Positions 3,874-56,562 of a DNA stretch of 64,000 nt are shown in pieces. Source of the stretch: an uncultured Hyphomicrobiales bacterium (GTDB lineage: Bacteria > Bacteroidota > Ignavibacteria > Kapaibacteriales > UBA2268); the NCBI GenBank assembly GCA_964509335.1, contig CAZDXB010000007.1:44882-108881 (forward strand). Direction: 5' to 3'. The notes under the pieces were generated by a model. It had not been told where the DNA came from, ran no database searches, and saw only the letters and a program-made list of their open reading frames with translations. Position 1 is the first letter of the stretch. Every line of letters begins with the position of its first letter. The translations under genes and the position numbers were made by a program.

Positions 3874-3920
3874 GTTCCGTCCGCTCCCGCGGCGGAACGC
3901 ATACTAAGAAGCTCTGCGTC
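3874..3920 (+). repeat. REP-like palindromic element family 1 (GTTCCGNCCGCTCCNGCGGCGGAAC + GACGCTCCGCGTC), copy a
   Basis: Imperfect inverted repeat GTTCCGTCCGCTCCCGCGGCGGAAC followed by a second small palindrome. Five further copies are in this window. This copy sits 19 bp after the stop of the DUF3078 gene. Confidence 0.8.
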
Positions 3921-3945
3921 TTCTAAAAACGCTTATTCTATAATC

Positions 3946-3975
3946 CTCCTTCCCAAATTGCAATTTGGGAAGGAG
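3946..3975. repeat. Hairpin repeat family 2 (CTCCTTCCCAAATTGCAATTTGGGAAGGAG)
   Basis: Perfect 30-bp palindrome. Related copies with core CC(G/C)AAATTGNAATTT(C/G)GG occur at 17428, 21159, 34116 and 43846, and in the 6342-6466 array. Confidence 0.7.
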
Positions 3976-4031
3976 CGCAAGCCTGAACGGCAACGTCGAA
4001 CGGTCTGTTCGCCCCGTTTTACAATTGATTC

Positions 4032-4059
4032 GTAGGAGCTGAAAATCTTCAGCCCCTAC
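4032..4059. repeat. GTAG-type REP palindrome family 4 (GTAGGNGCTGAAAATCTTCAGCCCCTAC)
   Basis: Perfect stem GTAGGGGCTGAA/TTCAGCCCCTAC with a 4-nt loop. It begins with GTAG, as do REPs recognised by REP-associated tyrosine transposases. A second, 1.5-unit copy is at 53560-53603. Confidence 0.7.
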
Positions 4060-4074
4060 ATTTTTAACTCTTCA

Positions 4075-4105
4075 CTCATCCGATGACTCCGAGTCATCGG
4101 ATGAG
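4075..4105. repeat. Palindrome family 3 (CTCATCCGATGACTCnGAGTCATCGGATGAG)
   Basis: 31-bp perfect palindrome between the convergent DUF3078 and yoeB genes. An identical copy is at 56504-56534, downstream of the 1873-aa gene. Confidence 0.7.
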
Positions 4106-4121
4106 TGATGTCTATAAGCTG

Positions 4122-4168
4122 ATTCCGTCCGCTCCCGCGGCGGAACGCATACTAAGACGCTGCGCGTC
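4122..4168 (+). repeat. REP-like element family 1, copy b
   Basis: TTCCGTCCGCTCCCGCGGCGGAACGCATACTAAGACGCTGCGCGTC. It lies 200 bp from copy a and is near-identical to it. Confidence 0.8.
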
Positions 4169-4180
4169 TTCAAAAAACGC

Positions 4181-4441
4181 TTATCCGTAATGCGTCCACA
4201 TTTTAAGTATCTTAATTATCCTATCTTTTTCGTAAACTTGATAAACCAATCTATGTTGTTTATTTATCCTTCTTGATACGAATCCTTTTAATCTTCCTTT
4301 TAAGATTTCGTATTTAGGAGGATACGAGAACGGATCTTCCTTAATTATATCAAGCAATTTCTGAACTTTGCTTTTTAAATTTGATGCGGCAATTTTCTTT
4401 GAATCTTCTCGCGCTTGTTTAGTGAAATATATCTCCCACAT
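4181..4441 (-). CDS. yoeB: YoeB/Txe-family type II toxin (RelE/ParE superfamily)
   Basis: 86 aa. ...GFVSRRINKQHRLVYQVYEKDRIIKILKMWTHY matches the YoeB C-terminal catalytic region (RRI...HRLVY...RYHY-like). It is directly abutted by an upstream small antitoxin ORF. Confidence 0.75.
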   Translation of the reverse strand: MWEIYFTKQAREDSKKIAASNLKSKVQKLLDIIKEDPFSYPPKYEILKGRLKGFVSRRINKQHRLVYQVYEKDRIIKILKMWTHYG

Positions 4442-4808: not shown

Positions 4809-5834
4809 CTATTCGTTCTGTTTTCTGTTCCGCCTGTATTTAGAGACGTATCTTTGATGCTGTTTGTTTGTCGAGGAAAAATAATGCTCGCCGCTGCCGT
4901 CGCCTTTAGCCACGAAAAACAAATATTTATGTTCGGCTGGTTTCAAAGCCGCTTCAATCGAGGCTTCCGAAGGGCAGTTAATAGGTCCCGGCGGCAATCC
5001 GGGGTATTTATAAGTGTTGTATTGGTTGTTTGTTTTCAAATCGCTGTAAGTCAAGCGTTTCTTGCCTTTTAAAGCGTATTGAACTGTTGGGTCGGCTTGC
5101 AGAAGCATCCCGCGCTCCAAGCGATTATGATATACTCCGCTAACAATCGGACGCTCCTTATCGACGGAAGTTTCCGCCTCTATTATCGAGGCTAAGGTCA
5201 AAACTTCTAGCCGCGTCATACCTCTTCTTTCCGCTAAATCCTCGAATTTTTCGTTCCATAATTTCTCTTGCGTTCTAATCAATTTATTTAAAACGTCATC
5301 GGCTGAAGCGTCGGCGTAAAATTCGTAAGAGCTCGGGAATAAAAATCCTTCCAACGAACTGGCTTTTATTTCCCATTGTTTTCGAGTCTTTCGCGAATTA
5401 GCTAGCTCTAAAAATTCCTCTTTAGTGAAATTAAAATTCGCCGCGCTTATCTCCGCGATTCTCTCGACCGTAACGCCTTCGGGATAAGTTACCGAAACGA
5501 TATTTTGATGAGTTCCGTCAAAAATAGCTTTTAATATTTCCTCGTTTGTCGAACCGCTTTTGAATCGATACAATCCCGCCTTTACTCCTCGCGAATTGAA
5601 ACGAGCGTAAAACTTCGCCAAGAAATCGTAGAACCAGCTCGGCTTTAAAAGACCGCTTTCGTTCATAATTGAAATCGACTCCGAGACGCTCGCGTTTTGC
5701 GGTATCTCGACAACCAACTCGCCGTTTATCGACGCCGCTTCGGAAAGCTCGCTTTTACTCCAACGATAACCCGCGTATGCCGCGATTAACACGACAATCG
5801 CAAATACCAGCGCGAAAATGAAAAATTTCTTCAT
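4809..5834 (-). CDS. mltG: Endolytic murein transglycosylase MltG (YceG family)
   Basis: Single N-terminal TM segment. Hallmark YNTYKYPGLPPGPI motif and EAETSVDKERPIVSGVYHNRL, as in MltG/YceG. Confidence 0.85.
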   Translation of the reverse strand: MKKFFIFALVFAIVVLIAAYAGYRWSKSELSEAASINGELVVEIPQNASVSESISIMNESGLLKPSWFYDFLAKFYARFNSRGVKAGLYRFKSGSTNEEILKAIFDGTHQNIVSVTYPEGVTVERIAEISAANFNFTKEEFLELANSRKTRKQWEIKASSLEGFLFPSSYEFYADASADDVLNKLIRTQEKLWNEKFEDLAERRGMTRLEVLTLASIIEAETSVDKERPIVSGVYHNRLERGMLLQADPTVQYALKGKKRLTYSDLKTNNQYNTYKYPGLPPGPINCPSEASIEAALKPAEHKYLFFVAKGDGSGEHYFSSTNKQHQRYVSKYRRNRKQNE

Positions 5835-6341: not shown

Positions 6342-6466
6342 ATAGACCTAATTCCCAAATAGACCTAATTCCCAAATTAGAATTTGGGAATTAGAACTGA
6401 AGTGAAATCGGAATTTGGGAATTAGAACTGAAGTGAAATCGGAATTTGGGAATTAGAACTGAAATT
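6342..6466. repeat. Tandem array: 2 x 17-bp direct repeat (AGACCTAATTCCCAAAT) then ~2.8 x 31-bp unit (GAATTTGGGAATTAGAACTGAAGTGAAATCG) containing family-2 palindrome TTCCCAAATTAGAATTTGGGAA
   Basis: Read directly. Units begin at 6380, 6411 and 6442. The array sits between the convergent osmC-like and sensor kinase genes. Confidence 0.8.
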
Positions 6467-14422: not shown

Positions 14423-15361
14423 ATGAAACGGTTAAATTTAATTCTCGCCGTTCTCTTTTCCGGTCTTATCATTTTCGGTTCTTGCGAGGAGGAATCTTCG
14501 GGTCCTTCTTGCAACACCGATATAGACGACAGAGTAGCCGATTTATACGATTGTCCGCCCGACGCCGGCAATTGTTACGAGGGCGACCTCGCGCAAAGGG
14601 TGCAAGACGACGTTTTAGAGCGAGTCAACTATTTCAGAAATATTCACAATTTGCCGGACGTATCCTACAATCCAACCTTCGACGATTACGTTCAAAAAGC
14701 TTCTCTTATTGCCGCCGCGAACAAGGCGCTAACGCATTACCCGAGCGAATCGGCAAAATGTTATACAGCCGTCGGCGATACGGGCAGCCAGAAAAGCAAT
14801 TTAGCTCTTTCTTGGAGCGGCGGATTTGTAGATAAAGCATCCGAGTATTTTGTAGATGGATGGATAAGCGAAATCCACTCTGCCAGTATCGGACACAGGC
14901 GTTGGATTCTACATCCTTTTTTAAATACGGTTTCTTTCGGCAGGGTGGATAGTTTTGAAGAAGGACACGTCGTCGGTTCGGCGTTATACGTAATGGATTC
15001 GAAATCGCCAAGCCAAGCAAACGTAGAGTTCATAGCTTGTCCGTTCCATAATTATCCATCGTCCGCTTTTCCGAATAACGCGCGATTTTCTTTTCAAATT
15101 CTCGCCGATAAGGATTCGCCTTGGGGCGCTAACCGAAACGTAGATTTTTCTAACGCGAGCATAGAGGTTTACCAAGGCTCGCCGGATAATTCGCTCTCCG
15201 TTAATTCCGTTAAATACGACAACGATGGATACGGTTTGCCGAATTGCATTCAATGGAAAACAAGTACGTTTTCCTACGGGGCGAGATATACGGTTAACGT
15301 TTCGAACGTTATTGTCGGCGGCGAATCAAAAGATTACGAATATTGGTTCGAGATTGATTAA
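14423..15361 (+). CDS. Lipoprotein with CAP/SCP-like domain (tentative)
   Basis: Signal peptide ending IIFGSC (lipobox-like). VNYFRNIHNLP resembles the CAP2 motif and GHRRWILHP is a CAP1/3-like motif. The assignment is weak. Confidence 0.4.
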   Translation: MKRLNLILAVLFSGLIIFGSCEEESSGPSCNTDIDDRVADLYDCPPDAGNCYEGDLAQRVQDDVLERVNYFRNIHNLPDVSYNPTFDDYVQKASLIAAANKALTHYPSESAKCYTAVGDTGSQKSNLALSWSGGFVDKASEYFVDGWISEIHSASIGHRRWILHPFLNTVSFGRVDSFEEGHVVGSALYVMDSKSPSQANVEFIACPFHNYPSSAFPNNARFSFQILADKDSPWGANRNVDFSNASIEVYQGSPDNSLSVNSVKYDNDGYGLPNCIQWKTSTFSYGARYTVNVSNVIVGGESKDYEYWFEID

Positions 15362-15468
15362 CAAAATATGCCCGTAATACCTACTTTGATTTTTTGACAA
15401 AGATGAAAGATAATAAAGCAAAAAATCGCCGAAAATTAATACGTTTGGAGTAAGACGGAAAAGCGAAG

Positions 15469-15903
15469 TTGAATGACGCGGGCAAAATGATTGAGAAATG
15501 GTATCTTGAGTTAGAGAATAAATTCAAAGACGTTCAGAGCGATTATTTTGTAGTAATGCCAAATCATTTTCATTGTATCATATCAAAAGTAGGGGCAGAC
15601 CTATGTGTCTGCCCCAAGAATAAGCGGATAGAGAAAAATAGCGAACGCGATATTAATAAGGAATCCATAAAAAGGGTCGAACACACAGGTTCGCCCCTAC
15701 ACTCGATAATCCAATGGTTTAAAACAATGACAACCAATGAATATATTAGAGGAGTTAAAAACAACAATTGGCGTCCTTTCCCCAGCAAATTGTGGCAACG
15801 CAACTACTACGAACGTGTTATCCGAAGCGACCGCGATTTATACGAATTACGAAAATATATCAAATACAACCCATTAAAATGGACATACGACAAATACTAT
15901 TAA
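15469..15903 (+). CDS. IS200/IS605-family Y1 (HuH) transposase, REP-associated tyrosine transposase (RAYT)-like; N-terminally short or interrupted
   Basis: HuH motif VVMPNHFHCII at residues ~30-40. C-terminal LWQRNYYERVIRSDRDLYELRKYIKYNPLKW carries the catalytic-Tyr motif (WQ..YY.H/R.IR) of Y1 transposases/RAYTs. The usual ~30-aa N-terminal beta-strand region is absent. An in-frame TAA at 15451-15453 separates an upstream MKDNKAKNRRKLIRLE segment (15403..) from the rest. Confidence 0.7.
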   Translation: MNDAGKMIEKWYLELENKFKDVQSDYFVVMPNHFHCIISKVGADLCVCPKNKRIEKNSERDINKESIKRVEHTGSPLHSIIQWFKTMTTNEYIRGVKNNNWRPFPSKLWQRNYYERVIRSDRDLYELRKYIKYNPLKWTYDKYY

Positions 15904-15924: not shown

Positions 15925-17235
15925 ATGACCCATTACAACATAATTAGCTTCTTCGGTTTGTTTGTTCTGATGGGAGTCGCTTGGCTGTTCTCTTCGGATA
16001 AAAAAAATATGAACTGGAGGGCGATTCTGTGGGGGACGGCGTTTCAATTCGCGATAGCGGCTTTTGTTTTTCTCGTTCCAATTGGAACGGACATATTTCT
16101 ATTCGTAAATAAATCGGTGATAAAATTCCTCGATTCCGCTTTCAAAGGGGCGGAATTCGTATTCGGACCTTTAGCGATACCGCCCGGAGAGACCGGCGAA
16201 GGCGGACAAAAATCTTTGGGCTTCATACTCGCTTTTCAAGGCTTGCCGACTATAATCTTCTTCGCCGCTTTTATTTCCATACTTTACTTCTTCGGCATAA
16301 TGCAAGTTATAATCAGGGGCTTCGCTTACGCGTTCGCCAAGCTGATGAAACTTTCCGGCGCCGAATCGCTCTCGGCGGCGAGCAATATATTCGTCGGCAT
16401 CGAGTCGGCTCTGACGATTAAGCCGTATTTGGAAAAGATGACGAAATCGGAGTTGTGCCTTGTTTTGACGGCGGGAACGGCGACAATCGCGTCAAGCATC
16501 CTCGCGACATACGTTTATATTTTGCAGAACCAAATCCCAACTATAGCGGGGCATCTAGTTTCCGCCTCGCTAATTTCCGCGCCCGCCGCGATTGTTATGG
16601 CGAAAATCGTCGAGCCGGAAAAAGACGAGCCGGAGACTTTGGGCGAAAGAGTCGAGCCATACTACGAAAAAGACCGCAACTTCTTCACGGCAATTATCAA
16701 CGGAGCGAATTCGGGCGTGAAAATGATTGTCGGCATAGTCGCTTTGCTCATCGCCGTCGTCAGCTTAGTGGCATTAGCGAACCAAATAGTAGGATTGCTC
16801 GGAGACTTAATAAACTGGATTTTCGGAACGGAAATAGACTTATCTTTGGAGAAAATTCTCGGCTACGTTTTCTATCCGTTCACTTTACTTATAGGAATAC
16901 CGCTGGAAGACGCCGCTAAAATGTCGGAAATAATAGGCGAGCGAATAATCGTTACCGAGCTGGTGTCTTATCAAGATTTAGCGGAGGCGATTAATCGGGG
17001 ACAAATAACTAATCCGCGTTCGATGGTCGTCGGCGCTTACGCTCTGTGCGGTTTCGCGCATTTCGCCTCAATCGCGATATTCACTGGCGGCATATCCGCT
17101 CTAGTCCCCAATAAAACGAAAGTCCTTACTTCGGTTGCGCTGAAAGCCTTGTTCGCCGCCGTTCTGGCTACGCTCGCCACCGCTTGCGTCGCCGGCGTTT
17201 TCTACGTTCAGGATCCGTCGATAATAGAGTTTTAA
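15925..17235 (+). CDS. nupC: NupC/CNT-family concentrative nucleoside transporter
   Basis: 436 aa polytopic protein. Conserved CNT motifs (GIESALTIKPYL, LTAGTATIASSILATYV, GFAHFASIAIFTGG). Confidence 0.85.
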   Translation: MTHYNIISFFGLFVLMGVAWLFSSDKKNMNWRAILWGTAFQFAIAAFVFLVPIGTDIFLFVNKSVIKFLDSAFKGAEFVFGPLAIPPGETGEGGQKSLGFILAFQGLPTIIFFAAFISILYFFGIMQVIIRGFAYAFAKLMKLSGAESLSAASNIFVGIESALTIKPYLEKMTKSELCLVLTAGTATIASSILATYVYILQNQIPTIAGHLVSASLISAPAAIVMAKIVEPEKDEPETLGERVEPYYEKDRNFFTAIINGANSGVKMIVGIVALLIAVVSLVALANQIVGLLGDLINWIFGTEIDLSLEKILGYVFYPFTLLIGIPLEDAAKMSEIIGERIIVTELVSYQDLAEAINRGQITNPRSMVVGAYALCGFAHFASIAIFTGGISALVPNKTKVLTSVALKALFAAVLATLATACVAGVFYVQDPSIIEF

Positions 17236-17250
17236 ATATTATATCGACTC

Positions 17251-17296
17251 GTTACGTCCGCTCCGGCGACGGAAAGCATACTAAGACGCTCCGCGT
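17251..17296 (+). repeat. REP-like element family 1, copy c (degenerate)
   Basis: CGTTACGTCCGCTCCGGCGACGGAAAGCATACTAAGACGCTCCGCGT, 16 bp after the nupC stop. Confidence 0.65.
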
Positions 17297-17331
17297 TGGT
17301 AGAGCCGAGCCGCTAACCAAAACAGTAGAAC

Positions 17332-17423
17332 GGGCTTTCTAGCCTGATTATTATACCTTTTTATTGTTTTTTTTATTGCTCAAGCTAGGAAGCTTGAGCT
17401 ACTTTTGGAGATGTTATTACGCG
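17332..17423 (+). repeat. ~95-bp repeat family 5 (GGGCTTYCTAGCCTG...CTCAAGCTRGGAAG.TTG.GCTACTTT.GAGA.ATRTTATTACG), copy A; contains terminator-like hairpin GCTCAAGCTAGGAAGCTTGAGC (17378-17399)
   Basis: Aligns at ~75 % with 56238-56330. Both copies lie just downstream of a + strand gene stop. The internal perfect 22-bp hairpin is followed by ACUUUUGG. Confidence 0.65.
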
Positions 17424-17427
17424 TCTT

Positions 17428-17451
17428 TTTCCGAAATTGCAATTTCGGAAA
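17428..17451. repeat. Hairpin repeat family 2 copy (TTTCCGAAATTGCAATTTCGGAAA)
   Basis: Perfect palindrome. Confidence 0.7.
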
Positions 17452-21158: not shown

Positions 21159-21190
21159 CTCATTCCAAAATTTCAATTTCGGAATGAGGG
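21159..21190. repeat. Hairpin repeat family 2 copy (CTCATTCCAAAATTTCAATTTCGGAATGAGGGG)
   Basis: Imperfect palindrome between the convergent DMT transporter and S24 peptidase genes. Confidence 0.65.
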
Positions 21191-34115: not shown

Positions 34116-34147
34116 TCATTCCGAAATTGGAATTTCGGAATGAGGGA
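34116..34147. repeat. Hairpin repeat family 2 copy (TCATTCCGAAATTGGAATTTCGGAATGAGGG)
   Basis: Perfect palindrome. Confidence 0.7.
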
Positions 34148-34195: not shown

Positions 34196-34869
34196 TTAAG
34201 GTGACAGGCGCTAACGATAGGCGGATAACCGACACGCTTTAGCGGTCGGATATCCTTTTTCGGCGATATCGAGCGATGGCAAATAGTTAAAGAGACTGTC
34301 TCGAAAGCAATAAATTCATACACGGGGGGCAAGCCCCGTGTGCTTCCAAAGTAAATCAGCGTAAAGCGATGGAATATAAACTTATCAGTCAATATTGAAA
34401 GGACGCATCGGGGCTAGCCCCGATGTAATATTTAAGTTTTTTAGGCAGTCGCTTCAGTTGTCGGCTTTCGTCAAGCGGCTTCTTAGCGTTAGCGGAAAGC
34501 TAAAGCTTTCCGTTTCCTTGGATTGCGAAGACGGGGGCGTCTTCGCTACTCTGTTTTGAAAAAATAAAAATAATATTTGGATTGTATAAATTTTGTTTTT
34601 ATATTTGTATTGGAATGTTATAAGTTCATATATATATATGATTTACAAAAACAAATAGAGGAGGCGTAAATTTGCCGGACATAATAGTTATAGAATGCCA
34701 AAGATTAAAACTGCCAAAATAAAGGACCGGCGAGAGTAAGCCGCGTCGCCGGTCCAATTATTGCGTCAACGCGCGTTCCCGAGTTTAAGATGTTATATTC
34801 GCGTTATAACTGCGGCTCGGGAACGCCGCCTATAATAACAATTACAAATTTAATAAAAAGGAAAGAGTT
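34196..34869 (+). promoter_or_regulatory. Long conserved non-coding leader, copy 1: ~100-bp conserved block (34196-34300), ~260-bp hairpin-rich unique segment, then ~310-bp block (34560-34869) with AT-rich promoter-like region, SD-preceded 16-codon uORF (34672-34722) and two GC-rich stem-loops (34724-34755; 34773-34826)
   Basis: 34560-34886 is ~95 % identical to 38566-38891, and 34196-34300 is ~85 % identical to 38336-38440. Hairpins GGACCGGCGA-N12-TCGCCGGTCC and GCGTTCCCGAG-N32-CTCGGGAACGC are identical in both copies. The uORF AGAGGAGG-7nt-TTG is MPDIIVIECQRLKLPK. Confidence 0.6.
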
Positions 34870-35457
34870 ATGAAAAAGATAATTTTGTTAATAATAGGTT
34901 TAATGTTTTTATCGTTTGTAATTTTGAAATCGCAACCAGCTTGCGAGCCTTGTTCATCTCAAACTACTTGGGCAAATGCACCTGTTAGTGTTTTACACGT
35001 TGTAATATCTGGTTCGGGATGCGAATTTGACGTTGAATACCAAACAATATTCTGCCTGACAGATGGAACTTGTAATTTTAGAATATTAAAACTCTACAAT
35101 ATTTTGGAGGCTTGCGACGGTTATGGTCCATTGGAATTACTAGAACAAGCGGCGCTGCAAATTATAAAAAACGATGGTATGTTCAAACAATGCTGGCCAT
35201 CTGGCTCTGGAGATTGTGTAGAACAAACTAGAGAGTGGTCCGCGGCTTGCTGGAAGTGGAAAGGAAACGTTGGTCCAGGACCGGGAACTACAGCTACGCT
35301 TAAGCCTTGCGAAACAGAGTCCTGTTGCGAATCCTATTATATGATTTGTAATGAAGGAGGAGCAATTATTGTTTATAAAACATATACAGAGGCAACTCAT
35401 CCTTGCGTGAATCCCGGTCCTGAGTGCTTTATAAGATGTGATTCTGGAGAAAAATAA
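34870..35457 (+). CDS. Cysteine-rich secreted protein (195 aa, ~19 Cys), uncharacterised family; paralog of 38875-39450
   Basis: Signal peptide MKKIILLIIGLMFLSFVILKS. C.PC near the mature N-terminus and the motif GCEFDVEYQTIFC match C.C and HCVFEAYYC in the paralog. The first 17 nt of the CDS are identical to the paralog, as part of the duplicated leader. Confidence 0.6.
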   Translation: MKKIILLIIGLMFLSFVILKSQPACEPCSSQTTWANAPVSVLHVVISGSGCEFDVEYQTIFCLTDGTCNFRILKLYNILEACDGYGPLELLEQAALQIIKNDGMFKQCWPSGSGDCVEQTREWSAACWKWKGNVGPGPGTTATLKPCETESCCESYYMICNEGGAIIVYKTYTEATHPCVNPGPECFIRCDSGEK

Positions 35458-36062: not shown

Positions 36063-38219
36063 ATGAAACGAAATATAATGTTATCAATATTAATATTTAC
36101 CGCTTCTTTCGCCGTTTGTTTTTCCCAGTTAGTTCCAAAATGGGAAATTGGCGCAGCGTCATTTACTCATAATGAATACAGATACGACGGATACCAATTT
36201 AATAAAATAGCGGGAACGAGTGAAAACGATATTATCGTTTTAGGTCAAAGTTACAATGCTGAAAATGGTTATTTTCCTGCAATTTGGCGTTTTAAAAATA
36301 AAGCCGACGAAAGAGAAATATTATATACAGACACAACTAAACAAGATAAAGGCCCCGATATCGCTACTCACGAGTTTAGGTCAATCGCGAAACCCGCACA
36401 TAACTACATAATCGCCGTCGGGGATTCTAACAAATATCAAGGAGAGTTTAAAGTCGAAGGAAAATTCGGCGAAGCTTGGCAAGAGTTTTATTTTAGAACT
36501 GGTTTTATGTTAATCTCAACCGACGGCGGCGAAAGTTGGAATAAAACAACGCTCGATTCTAACACCAAGTTAAACGAGGTAAGAATGCTCGATAACGACT
36601 ATGGGGTAATACTCGAGGAAGGTTGGGAGAATTATTACAACCAAAGAGAATTAATAAATAACGACACTTTGCTAATAACTAAAGACGGATGGAAAACATA
36701 CGAACAAATAAAACTTCCAGAAACAATAGAATATCCGGACGATATTTTCATTTTATCAAAGGATACGTTGGCTATTTTATGCTGGGACGCGGACACAAAA
36801 CGAACGTTTATTATTTTTTCCTACGACGGCGGCAAAAATTGGGAAGACGAATTTTACTTCGACGAAACCGTTCGTATTCAGGATATTGAATTTATAGGAA
36901 ACAAAGCTTACGCCGTTGGATGGTACGAACCGAGTTTATTGTCCGACACCGTTACTAATCCTTATGTTGATATTTCCGTTCAATTTCCTTATATCGCTTA
37001 TAGCGAAAATCGCGGACGTTCTTGGAGAAAACTCGAAAGCTTTCCAGTAGAAATTAACGATATAATTAAAGATTACGGACATAGGTTATACAGCGTTGAT
37101 TTTTGCGACAGTATAAACGGTATCGTAAGCGGATTTAGCGACAGTGCGAATCCTTACGTTTTTAAAACGACCGACGGCGGCGAAAGTTGGGAACGAGAAT
37201 ATTTGCCCTTTAGTTATCACAATCAAGCTTTGCTTATGAATATATATTTTCCGAGAAAAAATTACGCTCTAGTTTTTAATCAATCCAGATATGTTTACAA
37301 ATATGAAGGCGATAAACTTTTGGCTATGCCGAAATTTTATAAATTTAGCAACGTTCCAATAGAGAATTTGAAATTGAGATGGGCGTCGATAGAAGGGGCT
37401 AAAAATTATAGAATAAAAATTGACAGCACGAGAAAATGGTTTAGCGAATCTACCGGAATTAAAACCTATCCCGAGCCGGATTTCGAAAGTCCAATTATCG
37501 ATACTACAATAGCAGATACGTCTGTACTATTTGAGAAACTTATGTACGAATCGCGCATAGTCGCTTTTGTGAAAGCTATCGGCGAGTCGAGAGAAAGTTA
37601 CTGGCGTCGCTATATATTTGTAACTAATACTAGAGAAAATTATTTATATCAACCGAAGTTTGTATTTCCTAAATCTGTTACGATTATACGTGAATCGAGA
37701 GCGGAATTTAAATGGCGCGCTGTTAAGCCCGCAACCAAATATTACTTGACCATAGAAAATAAAGCTAACAGAGAAGTAATATTCAGGGATACGTTATCAG
37801 CCGTAGATACTAGCGTCGTAGTAATCGGTTTCGAGCCGAACACGGGTTATATGGCGCGTTTAGAAGCGACGAGAGGAAATGAATCATCCGGGGACTTAGC
37901 TTTTTTTATAACGGCGACGGAGTTGCCTGTTAGAGAGCGCAAAGAATACGAACCGATAACGAGTTTACGTATTTACCCTAACCCGACTTATTCTAGTATT
38001 AATCTTTCCGTGAATTTAAAAAGCCGAAGCAAAATTGAAATAGATTTGATAAATAGTTGGGGTTCAAAAATTGACAGGATATTTGGCGGTTATCAAACTG
38101 ACGGTTGTCATACTTTCCGCCATGCGCCGGAACCGGATTTGCCATCGGGAACGTATTGGATACGAGCGACTATTGACGGAGAGAAGCAAGTAGCAAAGCC
38201 GGTTGTGATATTAAAATAG
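36063..38219 (+). CDS. BNR/Asp-box repeat beta-propeller protein with FN3-like domains and T9SS C-terminal sorting domain
   Basis: 718 aa, signal peptide. Asp-box repeats STDGGESWNKT, SYDGGKNWEDE, TTDGGESWERE. FN3-like segments (KLRWASIEGAKNYRIKID; EFKWRAVKPATKYYLTIEN). C-terminal LRIYPNPTYSSINLSVN...VVILK CTD. Confidence 0.7.
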   Translation: MKRNIMLSILIFTASFAVCFSQLVPKWEIGAASFTHNEYRYDGYQFNKIAGTSENDIIVLGQSYNAENGYFPAIWRFKNKADEREILYTDTTKQDKGPDIATHEFRSIAKPAHNYIIAVGDSNKYQGEFKVEGKFGEAWQEFYFRTGFMLISTDGGESWNKTTLDSNTKLNEVRMLDNDYGVILEEGWENYYNQRELINNDTLLITKDGWKTYEQIKLPETIEYPDDIFILSKDTLAILCWDADTKRTFIIFSYDGGKNWEDEFYFDETVRIQDIEFIGNKAYAVGWYEPSLLSDTVTNPYVDISVQFPYIAYSENRGRSWRKLESFPVEINDIIKDYGHRLYSVDFCDSINGIVSGFSDSANPYVFKTTDGGESWEREYLPFSYHNQALLMNIYFPRKNYALVFNQSRYVYKYEGDKLLAMPKFYKFSNVPIENLKLRWASIEGAKNYRIKIDSTRKWFSESTGIKTYPEPDFESPIIDTTIADTSVLFEKLMYESRIVAFVKAIGESRESYWRRYIFVTNTRENYLYQPKFVFPKSVTIIRESRAEFKWRAVKPATKYYLTIENKANREVIFRDTLSAVDTSVVVIGFEPNTGYMARLEATRGNESSGDLAFFITATELPVRERKEYEPITSLRIYPNPTYSSINLSVNLKSRSKIEIDLINSWGSKIDRIFGGYQTDGCHTFRHAPEPDLPSGTYWIRATIDGEKQVAKPVVILK

Positions 38220-38239: not shown

Positions 38240-38313
38240 TTCCGTCCGCTCCAGCGGCGGAACGCATATTGAGACGCTCCGCGTCGTTTTTTCTTTGCCG
38301 CGCAGAGCGCGGG
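38240..38313 (+). repeat. REP-like element family 1, extended copy d (three hairpins: GTTCCG..CGGAAC, GACGCTCCGCGTC+T6, CCGCGCAGAGCGCGG)
   Basis: Begins 21 bp after the 36063-38219 stop. The long form is shared with copy e. Confidence 0.8.
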
Positions 38314-38335
38314 TTATTTTGGAATGAGGGGGAAG

Positions 38336-38874
38336 AGGGCGCTAACGATAGGCGGTAAACCGACACGCCTTAGCGGTCGGCAATCGTATCGCGGCAATAT
38401 TGAGCGCTGGCAAATAGTTAAAGCTATCGGTTGCCGAAAGATTACTTTGAAATATCGCATAGTTTTTGTGCGTATAAACCAATATAATATAAAATATTTA
38501 TAGAATATCTATGTTCACATGTGAACATTTTCAGCCCGCTATGTTCATATGTGAACATAGCTTAAATAATAAAAATAATATTTGGATTGTATAAATATTG
38601 TTTTTATATTTGTATCGGAATGTTATAAGTCCATATATATATATGATTTACAAAAATAAATAGAGGAGGCGTAAATTTGCCGAACATAATAGTTTTAGAA
38701 GGGCGAAGATTAAAACTGCCTAAATAAAGGACCGGCGAGAGTAAGCCGCGTCGCCGGTCCAATTATTGCGTCAAAGCGCGTTCCCGAGTTAAAGATGTTA
38801 TATTCGCGTTATAACTGCGGCTCGGGAACGCCTCCTATAATAACAATTGCAAATTTAATAAAAAGGAAAGAGTT
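38336..38874 (+). promoter_or_regulatory. Conserved non-coding leader, copy 2 (100-bp block 38336-38440; unique AT-rich segment with two perfect palindromes at 38511-38528 and 38539-38560; 310-bp block 38566-38874 with uORF 38677-38727 MPNIIVLEGRRLKLPK and the same two stem-loops)
   Basis: See copy 1. Palindromes ATGTTCACATGTGAACAT and CTATGTTCATATGTGAACATAG, read directly. Confidence 0.6.
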
Positions 38875-39450
38875 ATGAAAAAGATAATTTTAATATCGAT
38901 AACAATAGTCTTATTAGGATTAACTTTTAGCGCTAATAAGCTTAACGCACAGTGCGATTGCCCTCAAGACATACCGCCAACGAATATACCTTGGACTGTG
39001 GAAGGTCCCCATTATATCTTCATATACGACGACGAAGGTGACCATTGCGTTTTTGAGGCATATTATTGCTGGCGTAAAATTCTAGATTATTATCCGTCGC
39101 CGGAAATTCAAGTTGTTGTTTGTAAATATAGTCCTACGGAAGATTGCAACGAGAATTTTAATCTTTCGGTTTGGGAAATATATAAAAAATTGGGAATAAA
39201 AATAATTGAATTAAATCCAGATAATTTAGATTGGCCCGCTCCACCTTGTCCATATGGTTATCCATATTACTCAGTAGTAACTTTCGGTTGCTATGATGTA
39301 TATGACGAAACCCCGTGCGGCGGTTTAGTGTATTGTAAATACTTATTTGAAGTTTGTATGAGTGCGGGTCAAAGGATAACTAAGCCATTAGGAGCGACGA
39401 CGGTTGGAGACGAATGTCCGGTCGGGTGCGATAACAAATGCGGCGATTAA
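38875..39450 (+). CDS. Cysteine-rich secreted protein (191 aa, ~18 Cys), divergent paralog of 34870-35457
   Basis: Signal peptide MKKIILISITIVLLGLTFSANKLNA. Mature QCDCPQD...; HCVFEAYYC; C-terminal ECPVGCDNKCGD. Confidence 0.6.
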   Translation: MKKIILISITIVLLGLTFSANKLNAQCDCPQDIPPTNIPWTVEGPHYIFIYDDEGDHCVFEAYYCWRKILDYYPSPEIQVVVCKYSPTEDCNENFNLSVWEIYKKLGIKIIELNPDNLDWPAPPCPYGYPYYSVVTFGCYDVYDETPCGGLVYCKYLFEVCMSAGQRITKPLGATTVGDECPVGCDNKCGD

Positions 39451-39476
39451 TGATTGTAATAAAAAAGGAACTTGCT

Positions 39477-41954
39477 ATGTCGATTACAAAATATATTTTA
39501 ACAACGATAACAATAACTATAATCTTAGTTAATCCGTTGAAAGCCGAAAAGAAAATTGTTTGGCAAAATACAATATCGCGAATTTTGGATTGTCAAGTTA
39601 TCGATTCGCAGAATTACGTGATAGTCGGCGACGACGGCAAGATAATCTCGACGAGCGACGGCGGTTTTACTTGGCGATGGTTAGAATGCGGTTTGAGAAA
39701 TATATTTTACGGCGTAGATTTCCTCGACAAGAATACGGGCGTCGTTGTCGGCGACGGCGGCGCCTTCACCGCCACTACCGACGGCGGCGAGACTTGGCGT
39801 ACAGAAACTATAGATACGACCGCGTTTTTTTCGGTCGAAATGAAGAGCAAAAACGCGATATTCGCAAGCGGAATGAATACTTGTATTTACAAATCGAGCG
39901 ATTTCGGCGAGACTTGGAAAAAGGTTTTTAGCGGCGATAACGCCGTATTAGAAAACTATTTTTTCTTTAAAGACAGCATAAAAACAATAAAAGCCTATTC
40001 AAACAATAGCGATATTCATTTTGTAAACGACTCTATCGGTTTTGCCGCGGGCGTCGGACCTTTCGTTTTAAAAACCGAGGACGGCGGGGAGAGCTGGCGC
40101 AAAGTTCTGCAAAAAGGAGACAGCGCTCTATTTACGGATATCGACTTTTACGACGATAAACGCGGCGTAGCGGCGGGAGGCGATTTCGTATATAACGATT
40201 CGTTAAACTATGGGTATTTAAAAGCGAAGGCGTATTATACATTGGACGGAGGAGAAAACTGGATAGAAATGGATGCGCCGGGAGCGGGGCATTATATAGG
40301 CGCGAAGATGTTCGATAGCTCTTATATATATTTACTCGGCGGAACTCATTGGTCTCATATAACTAAAGATTTCGGTAACAGTTGGCGAAAAATTAAGTTT
40401 ATCGATTACAAATACTTCAAAAACAATCTGGACACTGATAATTATAAAGATACGACCGCGGCTTGGGGATCTGATTATACGCCGACAGCTATGTCCTCCG
40501 ATAACGAAGGGGTTATATTGTCTATCGACAAACAAGGAGTGATAATGAAATCGACCAATTTCGGCATAAATTATCAAACTTTAAAGAAGTTTGAAATGTA
40601 TGAATTTATTGGACATTATTTTAGACGCATTCACGGTTTTGCATCGCTTTCGGAAAACAAAGCGTTATTTTTTGGCGAGGAAAGCAAAGTTTATAGAACT
40701 TCCGACGGGGGAACAAGCTGGGACATTATTTTCCCTCGTTATGAAATAAAAAACTGGGATGATAAAGAATTTTGGAGTAGTATTTCATCGTCCAACGCTT
40801 CTTTTTATACTAGTTATTTACCCGATAGCGCGAACGGTTTCATTGCAGGCAAACTCGACGGTTGGAAGCCGTCAAATACGATATTTACTTCCGACGGCGG
40901 CGAAACTTGGGATATCGTAAATAATTTGAAATCGAAGAGCCTTAGTTTTATATCAAGAGATACAGGATTCGCAATAGGTTACGATTCATTACTTTTAAAA
41001 ACTGAAAATTTTGGGCTTAGTTGGGATACTCTGAGAATTTTTCATAGATCGGGCGATTATAATGAACGGCAACTTAACAATCGACCTCTACAAATAGTTT
41101 TTCCCGACTCAAGCGCCGGATATCTAATCATTAATTCAGCTTATATAAAAACAAACGATACGATTACTTATCCTACGGGTTATAAAGGGATCTCTAAGCT
41201 TTATAGAACTACAGACCGCTGGCAAACTTTCGATTCAATTTTTTGCGAGGAAACTCGCTGGCCCTTCGATAAAATTCACTTTATGGATAAAAATACGGCG
41301 TATATTTTTAGCGGCGACCATAAAACAATCTATAAAACGACCGACGGTTGCAAGACTTGGGATACGCGTATGCTTCCGGGAAATTACCATTTCGTAAACG
41401 ACGTTCATTTTATAGACGAAAATTTCGGGGTCGCCGTGGGGCGGCAGGACACAATATTTACTACGCGAGACGGCGGAAAATCTTGGGAAATAAAAGTTCT
41501 GCCTTTTAATAGAAATTATTTTGGCGATAAAAGGGGGGAGGATTTATATGATTTTATAGAAATAACCGAAGCAAAAAACGGTGATTTGTTTATTGTTGGC
41601 AAGGGCAGGGTTGTTAGAGGGTTAATAATAAACGACACGACGACGGTAGAGGGCCAAACGGAAGGCGGCAGGTATTGTCAGTTTTATTACATCACGATTA
41701 TCCCAAATCCTGTTAAGGGAACAGCGAAAATAAATTTATATGGATTGACACAGGCTAAGGGGCATAAATTGAGCTTAAAAATATACGATATAAACGGAAA
41801 TTTCGTTAAAGATATATCTAAGAAGGCGAACGCCAACAGCGATGGCAAAACCGCCGAGTTTGAAGTTAATTTGCACGGTTTGCCGAGCGGCATATATTTT
41901 ATTCAATTGGAGAGCAACAGCCGGACTAGATCCCGGAAGTTTATAAAGTATTAA
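39477..41954 (+). CDS. Large BNR/Asp-box repeat (Ycf48/sortilin-like) double beta-propeller protein with T9SS C-terminal sorting domain
   Basis: Track start 39438; ATG 39477 gives signal peptide MSITKYILTTITITIILVNPLKA. At least 12 Asp-box-like repeats (SDGGFTWRW, TDGGETWRT, SDFGETWKK, EDGGESWRK, LDGGENWIE, SDGGTSWDI, SDGGETWDI, TDGCKTWDT, RDGGKSWEI ...). C-terminal IIPNPVKGTAKINLYGL...FIKY CTD. Confidence 0.7.
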   Translation: MSITKYILTTITITIILVNPLKAEKKIVWQNTISRILDCQVIDSQNYVIVGDDGKIISTSDGGFTWRWLECGLRNIFYGVDFLDKNTGVVVGDGGAFTATTDGGETWRTETIDTTAFFSVEMKSKNAIFASGMNTCIYKSSDFGETWKKVFSGDNAVLENYFFFKDSIKTIKAYSNNSDIHFVNDSIGFAAGVGPFVLKTEDGGESWRKVLQKGDSALFTDIDFYDDKRGVAAGGDFVYNDSLNYGYLKAKAYYTLDGGENWIEMDAPGAGHYIGAKMFDSSYIYLLGGTHWSHITKDFGNSWRKIKFIDYKYFKNNLDTDNYKDTTAAWGSDYTPTAMSSDNEGVILSIDKQGVIMKSTNFGINYQTLKKFEMYEFIGHYFRRIHGFASLSENKALFFGEESKVYRTSDGGTSWDIIFPRYEIKNWDDKEFWSSISSSNASFYTSYLPDSANGFIAGKLDGWKPSNTIFTSDGGETWDIVNNLKSKSLSFISRDTGFAIGYDSLLLKTENFGLSWDTLRIFHRSGDYNERQLNNRPLQIVFPDSSAGYLIINSAYIKTNDTITYPTGYKGISKLYRTTDRWQTFDSIFCEETRWPFDKIHFMDKNTAYIFSGDHKTIYKTTDGCKTWDTRMLPGNYHFVNDVHFIDENFGVAVGRQDTIFTTRDGGKSWEIKVLPFNRNYFGDKRGEDLYDFIEITEAKNGDLFIVGKGRVVRGLIINDTTTVEGQTEGGRYCQFYYITIIPNPVKGTAKINLYGLTQAKGHKLSLKIYDINGNFVKDISKKANANSDGKTAEFEVNLHGLPSGIYFIQLESNSRTRSRKFIKY

Positions 41955-41974: not shown

Positions 41975-42051
41975 CGTTCCGCCCGCTCCAGCGGCGGAAC
42001 GCATACCCAGACGCTCCGCGTCGTTTTTTCTTTGCCGCGCAGAGCGCGGGG
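41975..42051 (+). repeat. REP-like element family 1, extended copy e
   Basis: GTTCCGCCCGCTCCAGCGGCGGAACGCATACCCAGACGCTCCGCGTCGTTTTTTCTTTGCCGCGCAGAGCGCGGG, 21 bp after the 41954 stop. Confidence 0.8.
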
Positions 42052-42153
42052 AATTTATGAGGCGAAACACTGATTCAGCTTACCCTCCTTCCAAAACTCC
42101 GATTTTGGAAGGTTATTTATATCAATTTGTCGCGGTGTCGTTTAATGACGCGC

Positions 42154-43893: not shown

Positions 43894-43943
43894 GACGCGG
43901 AGCGTCTCAATATGCGTTCCGCCGCGGGAGCGGGCGGAACGAG
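43894..43943 (-). repeat. REP-like element family 1, copy f (reverse orientation)
   Basis: Reverse complement reads GTTCCGCCCGCTCCCGCGGCGGAACGCATATTGAGACGCTCCGCGTC. It lies ~80 bp downstream of the minus-strand metalloprotease stop, in matching orientation. Confidence 0.8.
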
Positions 43944-44020
43944 CCGAGTAAACGGGGTATCCCTTCTACTAGTCGTTGTAGAGACGCAAAATTTTGCGTC
44001 TCTACTTTTTCAGCTTCGAA

Positions 44021-52789: not shown

Positions 52790-52862
52790 AGCGAAAGACG
52801 AGATTCGAACTCGCGACCCCAACCTTGGCAAGGTTGTGCTCTACCAGCTGAGCTACTTTCGC
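52790..52862 (-). tRNA. tRNA-Gly (anticodon GCC)
   Basis: The reverse complement GCGAAAGTAGCTCAGCTGGTAGAGCACAACCTTGCCAAGGTTGGGGTCGCGAGTTCGAATCTCGTCTTTCGCT folds as a cloverleaf. 7-bp acceptor stem, D-arm GCTC/GAGC, anticodon stem CAACC/GGTTG with loop TTGCCAA (anticodon GCC), T-arm GCGAG-TTCGAAT-CTCGT. Confidence 0.85.
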
Positions 52863-53559: not shown

Positions 53560-53603
53560 GTAGGGGCTGAAAATCTTCAGCCCCTACAATCTTCAGCCCC
53601 TAC
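53560..53603. repeat. GTAG-type REP palindrome family 4, 1.5-unit copy
   Basis: GTAGGGGCTGAAAATCTTCAGCCCCTACAATCTTCAGCCCCTAC between lipB and lpd. Confidence 0.7.
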
Positions 53604-56330: not shown

Positions 56331-56503
56331 TTGTCATTTAATTTATCAAATCGAGGAATGTTTTGTTTCGCCGCATTTGTGAGGCGTTCTAAGGGGGATT
56401 TGATTAATCATATCTATACCTCTACGGAAACAAATTGTAGTTTTCACTAGCTCCGTCCTTTAGAGCGGAGGAATGAAAACTACGTAATTCGTAATTTTTC
56501 CTA

Positions 56504-56534
56504 CTCATCCGATGACTCGGAGTCATCGGATGAG
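56504..56534. repeat. Palindrome family 3 copy (CTCATCCGATGACTCGGAGTCATCGGATGAG)
   Basis: Perfect palindrome 29 bp downstream of the 1873-aa gene stop. Confidence 0.7.
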
Positions 56535-56562
56535 TTTCGTCTCTTCAGAAGATTAATTAAAT

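Follow-up and report, generated by a model that had tools for sequence, protein, structure and literature searches.

The window that we analyzed is a 64-kb stretch of DNA (64,000 nucleotides) from a metagenome-assembled genome, and it contains a single RAYT gene copy, as judged by tblastn with two full-length relatives (P0004 and P0003). The gene is located on the forward strand between a gene for a CAP-domain protein, which ends at position 15361, and a gene for a concentrative nucleoside transporter, which starts at position 15925. The genes around it are ordinary chromosomal genes, and the spacers that separate it from its two neighbors are 41 and 21 nt in length; no hairpins were found in either spacer. 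The mechanically defined open reading frame (15469-15903, with its stop codon at 15901-15903) starts with TTG and specifies 144 amino acids, and the gene call in the database (P0001) starts at the ATG at 15487 and specifies 138. Consistent with an earlier note on this DNA, which had recognized HuH and catalytic-Tyr motifs in the 144-aa ORF, we located the HuH motif NHFH at 15562-15573 (residues 32-35 of that ORF), the sequence WQRNYYERVIR, which corresponds to the WQ or GTAG-recognition region of REP-associated Y1 enzymes, at 15793-15825, and the catalytic-Tyr motif YIKYNP (family consensus YIxNNP) at 15856-15873. The same note had also pointed to an in-frame TAA at 15451 that separates an upstream segment from the gene, and this too holds: a mini-ORF at 15403-15453, made up of an ATG and 15 further codons (MKDNKAKNRRKLIRLE), ends at the TAA at 15451-15453, and the retained gene body (15454-15903) starts with the codon immediately after it.

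Two REPs lie within the reading frame, on the C-terminal side of the HuH motif. The left one (15589-15615, forward strand) has a GTAG foot, a perfect 9-bp stem (GGGGCAGAC/GTCTGCCCC) and a 6-nt loop, and it encodes VGADLCVCP. The right one (15674-15700; GTAGGGGCGAACctgtgtGTTCGACCC) is inverted, i.e. it reads on the reverse strand, and its 9-bp stem contains one mismatch; on the forward strand this segment encodes (R)VEHTGSPL(H). A variable linker (15616-15673; KNKRIEKNSERDINKESIK...) separates the two. (This inverted pair of GTAG-footed REPs inside the reading frame had escaped the earlier note.) When the segment that carries both REPs is folded as single-stranded DNA it forms two hairpins, with a z-score of -5.2 when compared to shuffled sequences.

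A database search with the protein returned 4337 homologs, most of them 184-250 aa in length. The best non-self homologs are 53-62% identical, and several are labelled 'REP element-mobilizing transposase RayT' by their source; the closest homologs are ~190-210 aa long and come from the Bacteroidota, Chloroflexota, Deltaproteobacteria and many other phyla. In the window, the tblastn matches to P0004 and P0003 extend from 15454 to 15891-15900 with 56-60% identity (E about 1e-60), and a family profile built from 74 relatives scores the window copy at 237 bits. The homologs, the family profile and the motifs thus bear out the previous assignment of the gene to the RAYT-type Y1/HuH transposases. 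The matches to the curated models NCBIfam NF047646 (REP_Tyr_transpos; E = 7.9e-16, 58.3 bits) and Pfam PF01797 (Y1_Tnp; 19.3 bits) fall under the respective cut-offs of 80 and 23 bits, as would be expected of a gene that has lost a third of the domain and whose match is split by the REP linker. (Note that a precomputed Pfam match is absent for many intact relatives, too.)

Among the classes of Y1 transposases, the gene resembles TnpAY1 subclass 2.4 of Quentin, Siguier, Chandler & Fichant (2018; PMC6006769), which these authors equate with RAYT Group 4 as defined by Bertels et al. (2017; PMC5581495). Members of this subclass occur in Cyanobacteria, Bacteroidetes and scattered phyla, have a mean length of 194 aa and are characterized by NH[IFV]H, WQ and YIxNNP motifs; their REPs are of the 'canonical long' and 'double foot' GT[AG]G types, and a unique feature of the subclass is the presence of REPs in frame within the gene, between the HuH and Tyr motifs (PMC6006769). 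The consensus of the relatives that we collected begins with MKYNPxIHHRRSIRLKGYDYSQAGLYFITICxQNRxCLFGxIxNGxMILNDAGxMIEKWY and continues with ...MPNHFHCII.NVGADLRVCP...GEHxGSPLHRVVQWFKTMTTNEYIRGVK..GW.PF.GKLWQRNYYEHIIRNE......EYIINNP. The NHFH of the window copy fits the subclass signature (Table 1 of PMC6006769), and the residues of the Tyr motif that are invariant in the relatives (Y180, N184 and P185) are all kept; YIKYNP deviates from YIxNNP once, by an N-to-Y change at the fourth position. The window copy shares with the subclass the HuH, WQ and Tyr motifs, the closest relatives, in-frame REPs between HuH and Tyr, GT[AG]G REPs with GGG/CCC at the base of the stem, double-foot REPs in the same genome and low REP copy numbers. 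It differs from the subclass in failing to present a complete HuH/Tyr core (beta1 to alphaD), with ~26 N-terminal codons gone and a TAA in the frame, in the absence of REPs from the 1 kb to either side, and in reading YIKYNP (N to Y) and YYER instead of YYEH. Judged by sequence, motifs and intragenic REPs, the gene is a descendant of TnpAY1 subclass 2.4. The locus is most likely a decayed member of a known family, and nothing about it falls outside known biology.

More distant comparisons bear on the fold of the family. A profile of 28 relatives matches the TnpA-REP of E. coli (PDB 4ER8; E = 1.7e-5), with the alignment covering the HuH strand as well as the WQ...YI.NP region; an alignment profile was required for this, as a single-sequence search of the PDB sequences with a full-length relative gave no match. 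The NHFH region aligns to PEHMHCIW of 4ER8 and WQRNYYERVIR aligns to IWQPRFWEHAIRN, with the H replaced by R in the window copy. (Roles for the W, Q, E, H and R residues of the WQ region of REP-associated Y1 enzymes are described in PMC6006769.) An AF2 model of the full-length relative P0004 (pLDDT 78, pTM 0.73) has 30 significant matches in the PDB (E <= 0.001), all of them to Y1 HuH transposases, including those of ISDra2, IS608 and IS200 as well as 4ER8. Note that the fold, a four-stranded sheet with the HuH motif and a C-terminal helix with the Tyr, is read here from the model of a full-length relative, and the window copy is without one of its strands. The E. coli enzyme (RAYT, YafM) resembles this family in its Y1 HuH fold and in its type of substrate, REP hairpins with a GTAG foot; it differs in belonging to subclass 2.2, in being only ~19% identical, and in that its gene is flanked by REPs (a REPtron) and carries no REP in the reading frame. 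The TnpA proteins of the IS200/IS605 family (IS608, ISDra2), which are the top structural matches, share the catalytic core and the fold, but these elements are autonomous and multi-copy, with left- and right-end hairpins and often tnpB, and none of these features is found at the window locus.

We then compared the 5' end of the gene with its full-length relatives. The part that is homologous to these relatives begins with the codon that follows the TAA, at 15454 (DGKAKLNDAGK versus DGRIRLNDAGK in the tblastn alignment). When the 16-residue peptide encoded upstream of the TAA is aligned on its own to the family profile, it matches positions 6-21 (mkynpeihkRrsiRlk), and as high a score was obtained with just 3 of 2000 composition-preserving shuffles; the nearly invariant family residues R10, I13, R14 and L15 are all kept in it. 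On this evidence, the mini-ORF is a relic of the original 5' end of the gene and of the family N-terminus (MKYNPxIHHRRSIRLK...). An alternative placement of the peptide, against QNRECLFGEI, was returned by global MAFFT and glocal HMM alignments and was rejected, given that it mismatches the invariant residues F39 and G40; the N-terminal placement is preferred because R10, I13, R14 and L15 match and because the profile picks it for the lone peptide. Family positions ~16-43 (KGYDYSQAGxYFxTICxQNRxCLFGEIx) are lost, with 'E' and the TAA in their place, such that the net in-frame loss is ~26 codons (78 nt) and the TAA sits at the junction. In the model of P0004, beta1 (YFxTIC) spans residues 24-32 and the next hairpin spans residues 40-49, with its first strand in the lost part (40-43). 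The first beta-strands had previously been said to be missing, and beta1 and half of the following hairpin are indeed absent; for beta1 this is true whichever placement of the upstream peptide is taken. The accompanying statement that the HuH motif lies only ~30 residues from the N-terminus instead of ~60 was right about the short spacing, but the spacing in full-length relatives is ~80 rather than ~60 residues.

A search for the orthologous locus through the neighboring nucleoside transporter gene yielded a closest homolog that is only 64% identical, among matches carrying a mixture of WOR-3, Omnitrophica and Planctomycetota names; as the databases hold no close genome, the ancestral allele and the exact end-points of the deletion are not reconstructable. 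We also considered deletion by RAYT-mediated excision between REPs, and the junction neither supports nor refutes it. (Some relatives carry REP insertions between the beta-hairpin and helix A, near the position of the right-hand break.)

A short N-terminus might in principle be the mark of a genuine short subfamily rather than of a lesion, and the earlier note had proposed asking whether it is common among homologs. It is not. We took 80 relatives from GTDB representative genomes and extended each upstream in frame; these relatives span the Bacteroidota, Chloroflexota, Deltaproteobacteria, Kapaibacteria, Francisella, Acidobacteriota, Planctomycetota, a Firmicute and others, and the best of them in the scan of genome contigs is 58% identical to the window copy. 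(Cultured isolates, such as Francisella philomiragia and Sphingobacterium thermophilum, are among them.) At least 74 of the 80 have the full N-terminal motif in frame, and none of the 80 has the deletion found in the window copy. Four relatives appear to be damaged in other ways: L012 is frameshifted, L030 is without an in-frame N-terminus, and L028 and L077 contain in-frame stops. The database does hold 'short' homologs of 147-154 aa that start M-x-LNDAG; P0016 and P0110 have a complete N-terminus in frame ahead of the called start, and P0037 contains a frameshift. These short entries are therefore miscalled starts or the product of a frameshift and do not constitute a short subfamily. With most relatives at 184-250 aa, the survey confirms the earlier description of the gene as truncated and interrupted and, of the two fates offered for it, favors decay.

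To gauge the state of what remains, the retained core was scored, with the REP linker removed, against an independent profile made from other sequences. It scores 1.55 bits per residue when compared to 1.53±0.17 for 67 intact relatives, which places it at rank 32 of 68. There are 65 columns that are conserved in at least 90% of the relatives; the window copy is identical at 49 of these and has lost 12 to the gap. Where the alignment is secure, only two residues depart from such columns, namely an H-to-R change (YYEH to YYER) and an I-to-L change. Moreover, the 144 retained codons contain no frameshift, no stop and no excess of substitutions. This cleanliness is equally expected from continued selection on a truncated product and to that extent counts against reading the gene as a pseudogene. 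Either the lesion would be recent or the remainder would still be under selection, and we favor the former, given that the HuH motif sits on the very sheet from which the strand is missing. Loss of that strand suggests that catalytic function has been lost.

Taken together, these observations make it likely that a REP-associated Y1 HuH transposase gene of TnpAY1 subclass 2.4 has decayed here into a pseudogene or, at best, persists as a crippled remnant; the locus is filed as such because neither a complete core domain nor a score above the curated HMM cut-offs is present. What is currently an unannotated 138-aa 'hypothetical protein' would thus be corrected to a RAYT pseudogene. By analogy with what the literature describes for the E. 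coli TnpA-REP and IS608, intact members of the family (~190-210 aa) would cut and rejoin single-stranded DNA at GTAG-footed REP hairpins, presumably using a His-hydrophobic-His metal site on the central beta-sheet together with the C-terminal catalytic Tyr. In the window copy, an in-frame loss of ~26 codons has taken out strand beta1 and half of the next beta-hairpin. The deletion has left the TAA at the junction, and with it a 16-codon mini-ORF and an ORF of 138 or 144 aa that is without beta1. The remainder, including the REP pair (VGADLCVCP...EHTGSPL) between HuH and Tyr, is intact and no less family-like than functional relatives, which suggests that the lesion is recent.

The alternative that survives best is that the locus encodes a functional short form, that is, the 138-aa protein made from the ATG at 15487, which might be a nuclease in itself or might pair with or inhibit a full-length RAYT encoded at another site in the genome. 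The ATG lies 34 nt past the stop of the mini-ORF, such that re-initiation there is conceivable; all catalytic motifs are kept, the conservation of the retained core is indistinguishable from that of intact relatives, and, given that Y1 transposases are dimeric (PMC6006769), a truncated subunit could interfere with a full-length partner. Such a protein would, however, be missing beta1 and half of the adjacent hairpin from the very sheet that carries the HuH motif, its architecture occurs in 0 of the 80 relatives, and the homologs that look similarly short owe this to annotation artefacts or frameshifts. Furthermore, a relic start codon and N-terminal peptide lie upstream, for which a designed short form would have no need, and no promoter-like site is prominent upstream of 15487 (the scan for promoters and terminators around the gene was otherwise uninformative). 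We consider a functional short form to be unlikely.

The REP pair inside the gene raises a second alternative, which concerns the DNA rather than the protein. GT[AG]G-footed hairpins within the ORF are the rule among the relatives: 72 of the 80 carry one or more, and 62 carry two or more. The left head of the window copy (GTAGGGGCAGAC) is found on the coding strand within the genes of 54 relatives and the right head (GTAGGGGCGAAC) on the opposite strand within the genes of 51; the same two heads dominate the REPs outside the relatives' genes, with 35 instances of GTAGGGGCAGAC and 30 of GTAGGGGCGAAC. The linker between the intragenic REPs is hypervariable and internally repetitive among the relatives, and it is predicted to be disordered, with residues 92-120 of the P0004 model having a pLDDT below 50. 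The REP-coding codons are, by contrast, nearly fixed across phyla (GTA GGG GCA GAC ... GTC TGC and GGC GAA CAC ... GGT TCG CCC CTA). By simple codon counts, made without a phylogenetic rate test, a single codon accounts for 92-98% of the occurrences of the four-fold degenerate residues V, G, S and P in the REP segments, whereas the top codon reaches only 38-50% for the four-fold degenerate residues T, P and R in catalytic motifs that are just as conserved. On these counts, the nucleotide-level conservation of the intragenic REPs far exceeds what the protein sequence needs, and the comparison suggests that the hairpins within the transposase gene may have a function of their own throughout the family. 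Note that the existence of intragenic REPs was already published (PMC6006769); it is the strength of their conservation at the nucleotide level that is observed here. In-frame palindromes are also known from the RPEs of Rickettsia and from intragenic GTAG/CGTC REPs (PMC3733652), which likewise end up, once translated, in surface or linker regions of a host protein; the present case differs in that the decorated protein is the REP-processing enzyme itself and in that the inserted REPs are conserved as DNA across phyla.

Accordingly, the protein could be dead and the DNA kept, with the REP pair (15589-15700) serving as a cis element, either as a substrate or 'seed', akin to a REPIN, on which a RAYT could act in trans, or as structural or regulatory hairpins. 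The near-fixation of synonymous sites across phyla and the predominance of the same two heads among the extragenic REPs beside the relatives' genes both speak for this idea, as do the intact state of both hairpins in the window copy and the folding of the segment (z = -5.2 relative to shuffles). Intact hairpins are, however, equally expected if the lesion is merely recent. The right REP has a stem-weakening change, GTC at the position where 52 of 54 relatives read GGC, and the 64-kb window contains no extragenic copy of either type and hence no sign of propagation. We judge retention of the DNA as a cis element in the window copy to be somewhat less probable still than a functional short form. 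A broader conjecture is that the inverted REP pair is a selected unit, such that each RAYT gene of subclass 2.4 would come with a master REPIN of its own or with self-targeting or regulatory hairpins, and that the window copy is a 'protein-dead, REP-intact' non-autonomous allele or else a gene whose truncated product modulates a full-length paralog. The pair is read as a selected unit because the synonymous sites are near-frozen and because the same two types dominate the REPs beside the relatives' genes, and as a whole we put the conjecture forward as speculative and improbable. The wider interest of these findings lies in the apparent family-wide selection on the embedded REP-pair DNA and is not specific to the window.

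Two further explanations can be dealt with more briefly. The stop and the deletion might be an assembly or sequencing artefact of a metagenome-assembled genome, with the real gene being intact, and, apart from Logan assemblies, a single NCBI contig is indeed the sole source of the protein. Nevertheless, two runs that were assembled separately (SRR7048219 and SRR7048220) yielded contigs that match the window exactly over the whole locus, including the junction and its TAA, and an in-frame loss of 78 nt combined with a stop is untypical of assembler errors, which makes an artefact very unlikely. Derivation of the locus, as a fragment, from an ordinary autonomous insertion sequence of the IS200/IS605 family, with which it has the fold and the motifs in common, is the least plausible explanation of all, given that there is no tnpB, that there are no subterminal IS hairpins and only the 41 and 21 nt to the host genes, that the window holds a single copy, and that the sequence, the motifs and the intragenic REPs are those of subclass 2.4 and not of subclass 1.1 (TnpA-IS200).

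We next asked how the palindromes elsewhere in the window relate to the putative pseudogene. The claim that small palindromic repeats are abundant held up within the 64-kb window, where there are 27 perfect hairpins with a stem of at least 9 bp when compared to 3.2 in mononucleotide shuffles, and 8 with a stem of at least 11 bp when compared to 0.17. With the exception of the pair inside the RAYT remnant, the repeated palindrome families all lie outside long ORFs (as defined by a crude ORF map), and each family has only 2-6 copies in 64 kb. The gene had also been described as lacking flanking inverted REPs, and we agree: its spacers are free of hairpins, no canonical GT[AG]G REP is present within ±1000 nt, and the nearest extragenic GTAG-footed hairpin (17378-17402) is ~1.5 kb away. 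When the same detector was applied to the relatives, a REP was found within 1 kb in 34 of 80 (none in 46) and on both sides in 7 of 80. By this detector, a REP within 1 kb of a subclass 2.4 gene is thus not universal.

The remaining claim, that the RAYT occurs 'together with its REP population', is not supported. The remnant's own heads (GTAGGGGCAGAC and GTAGGGGCGAAC) occur nowhere in the 64-kb window besides the gene. A double-foot REP (GTAGGGGCTGAAaatcTTCAGCCCCTAC) is found outside genes at 53560-53587, with a partial extra arm (a duplicated right arm) that extends to 53603, and a second copy (GTAGGAGCTGAAAATCTTCAGCCCCTAC; family D8), which differs by one mismatch, is located at 4032-4059 in a cluster of unrelated palindromes. 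The exact sequence of this REP (GTAGGGGCTGAA/GTAGGGGCTGAAaatcTTCAGCCCCTAC) is found in at least 120 metagenome contigs. Four contigs have both the double-foot REP and a RAYT gene, and in these the REP lies within or adjoins the matched span of the gene; translation of two of these contigs, L165 and L156, shows that it encodes NVGAEDFQPL directly after the HuH strand. Neither the double-foot REP nor the other palindromes of the window that were searched for had a match in the 80 RAYT loci. These sequence comparisons suggest that the extragenic GTAGGGGCTGAA double-foot REPs probably belong to a sister RAYT lineage of subclass 2.4 and not to the gene studied here, and nearby palindromes should not be taken for the progeny of the remnant.

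Other GTAG-footed palindromes are also present. One of a different double-foot GTAG type (GTAGAGACGCAAAATTTTGCGTCTCTAC; 43978-44005) has 14-bp arms and no loop, an architecture that would fit the 'double foot' type of subclass 2.4 (PMC6006769), and single GTAG-footed extragenic hairpins are found at 17378, 34525 and 56231. Four sequences of families A and B gave 0 matches in the loci of the 80 relatives. An Rfam search of the window identified only a tRNA, such that no repeat family corresponds to a known RNA. The remaining palindrome families are not GTAG-footed; they comprise TTCC[CG]AAATTGCAATTT[CG]GGAA, CACTCATCCGATGACTC... and a six-copy module, the last of which resembles a terminator.

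The RAYT (REP-associated tyrosine transposase) genes of a sister lineage within subclass 2.4 carry, in frame, a double-foot REP, GTAGGGGCTGAAGATTTTCAGCCCCTAC (loci L165, at 5138-5801, L156, L121 and L135). In two of these genes (L165 and L156) the REP encodes NVGAEDFQPL, and in the sister lineage it occupies the same site downstream of the HuH motif as VGADLCVCP, the translation of the left intragenic REP, does in the lineage of the window copy. L165 has a second copy of the double-foot REP just beyond the end of the gene, and at L135 it occurs five times within 1.4 kb.

We also observed a second hotspot for in-frame insertions in the RAYT ORFs of relatives, located in the upstream part of the ORF, after the beta-hairpin (LFGEI) and before helix A (LNDAG). 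Insertions at this position were present in L008, L015, L019, L020, L035, L038, L064 and L074, and include repeated MTCSPE units (L020) and the peptide GANLRVCPE (L008). The right-hand break of the N-terminal deletion in the window RAYT falls near this hotspot. In approximately 5% of the sampled family members the gene is itself disrupted, being frameshifted, containing in-frame stops or lacking the N-terminus (L012, L028, L030, L077 and L002, the last being the locus of the short database homolog P0037); decay of such RAYT genes is therefore not rare.

No close relative of the host was found in the databases. The best database match of the nucleoside transporter encoded at 15925-17235 is 64% identical, and its matches bear a mixture of candidate-phylum names (WOR-3, Omnitrophica and Planctomycetota). 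The GC content of the RAYT locus is 36.7%, versus 41.8% for the window, which also contains a tRNA gene on the minus strand (52790-52862).

Several other repeats are present in the window. Near-perfect palindromes of the form TTCC[CG]AAATT(G/N)CAATTT[CG]GGAA, with a loop of 0-2 nt, are found at 3946-3975, 6348-6466 (with three 31-nt units in tandem at 6374-6466), 17428-17451, 21160-21190 and 34116-34143. Every copy is intergenic, and the palindromes were found at none of the 80 RAYT loci from relatives; they may serve as a site for protein binding or represent a further mobile palindrome. A perfect palindrome of 16-18 bp, (T)CACTCATCCGATGACTC-N-GAGTCATCGGATGAGTG(A), has two copies, both intergenic (4072-4108 and 56503-56535), the first of which sits together with three other repeat families in a mosaic cluster at 3875-4184.

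An extragenic module of 60-80 nt is present in six copies where none would be expected, five on the plus strand (3875-3936, 4123-4184, 17252-17313, 38240-38319 and 41977-42056) and one on the minus strand (43910-43933). It consists of a hairpin, TTCCGYCCGCTCCNGCGGCGGAA, followed by CATACTAAGACGCTCCGCGTC; two of the six copies also have a T-run, and at least five lie shortly 3' of a gene end, on the same strand as that gene. The module, which lacks the GTAG foot and has no match in Rfam, appears to be a terminator-like 3' element in multiple copies.

The repeat finder also reported a 30-nt family, ACCGACGGCGGCGAAAGTTGGGA, with 12 copies across 36512-37208 and 39770-41488, all except one of which fall inside two large ORFs (36063-38219 and 39438-41954). 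This repeat looks like a coding-sequence motif, with TDGGESW as its putative in-frame reading, and resembles an Asp-box/BNR-type protein repeat rather than a DNA element. Finally, direct repeats of 86 nt (34207-34292 and 38338-38423; 86% identity) and 300 nt (34559-34858 and 38564-38863; 95% identity), whose partners are 4 kb apart, each lie 5' of apparently paralogous gene pairs (beginning at 34870 and 38875). They represent a duplicated leader or regulatory region, which includes the hairpin GGACCGGCGA-12 nt-TCGCCGGTCC.
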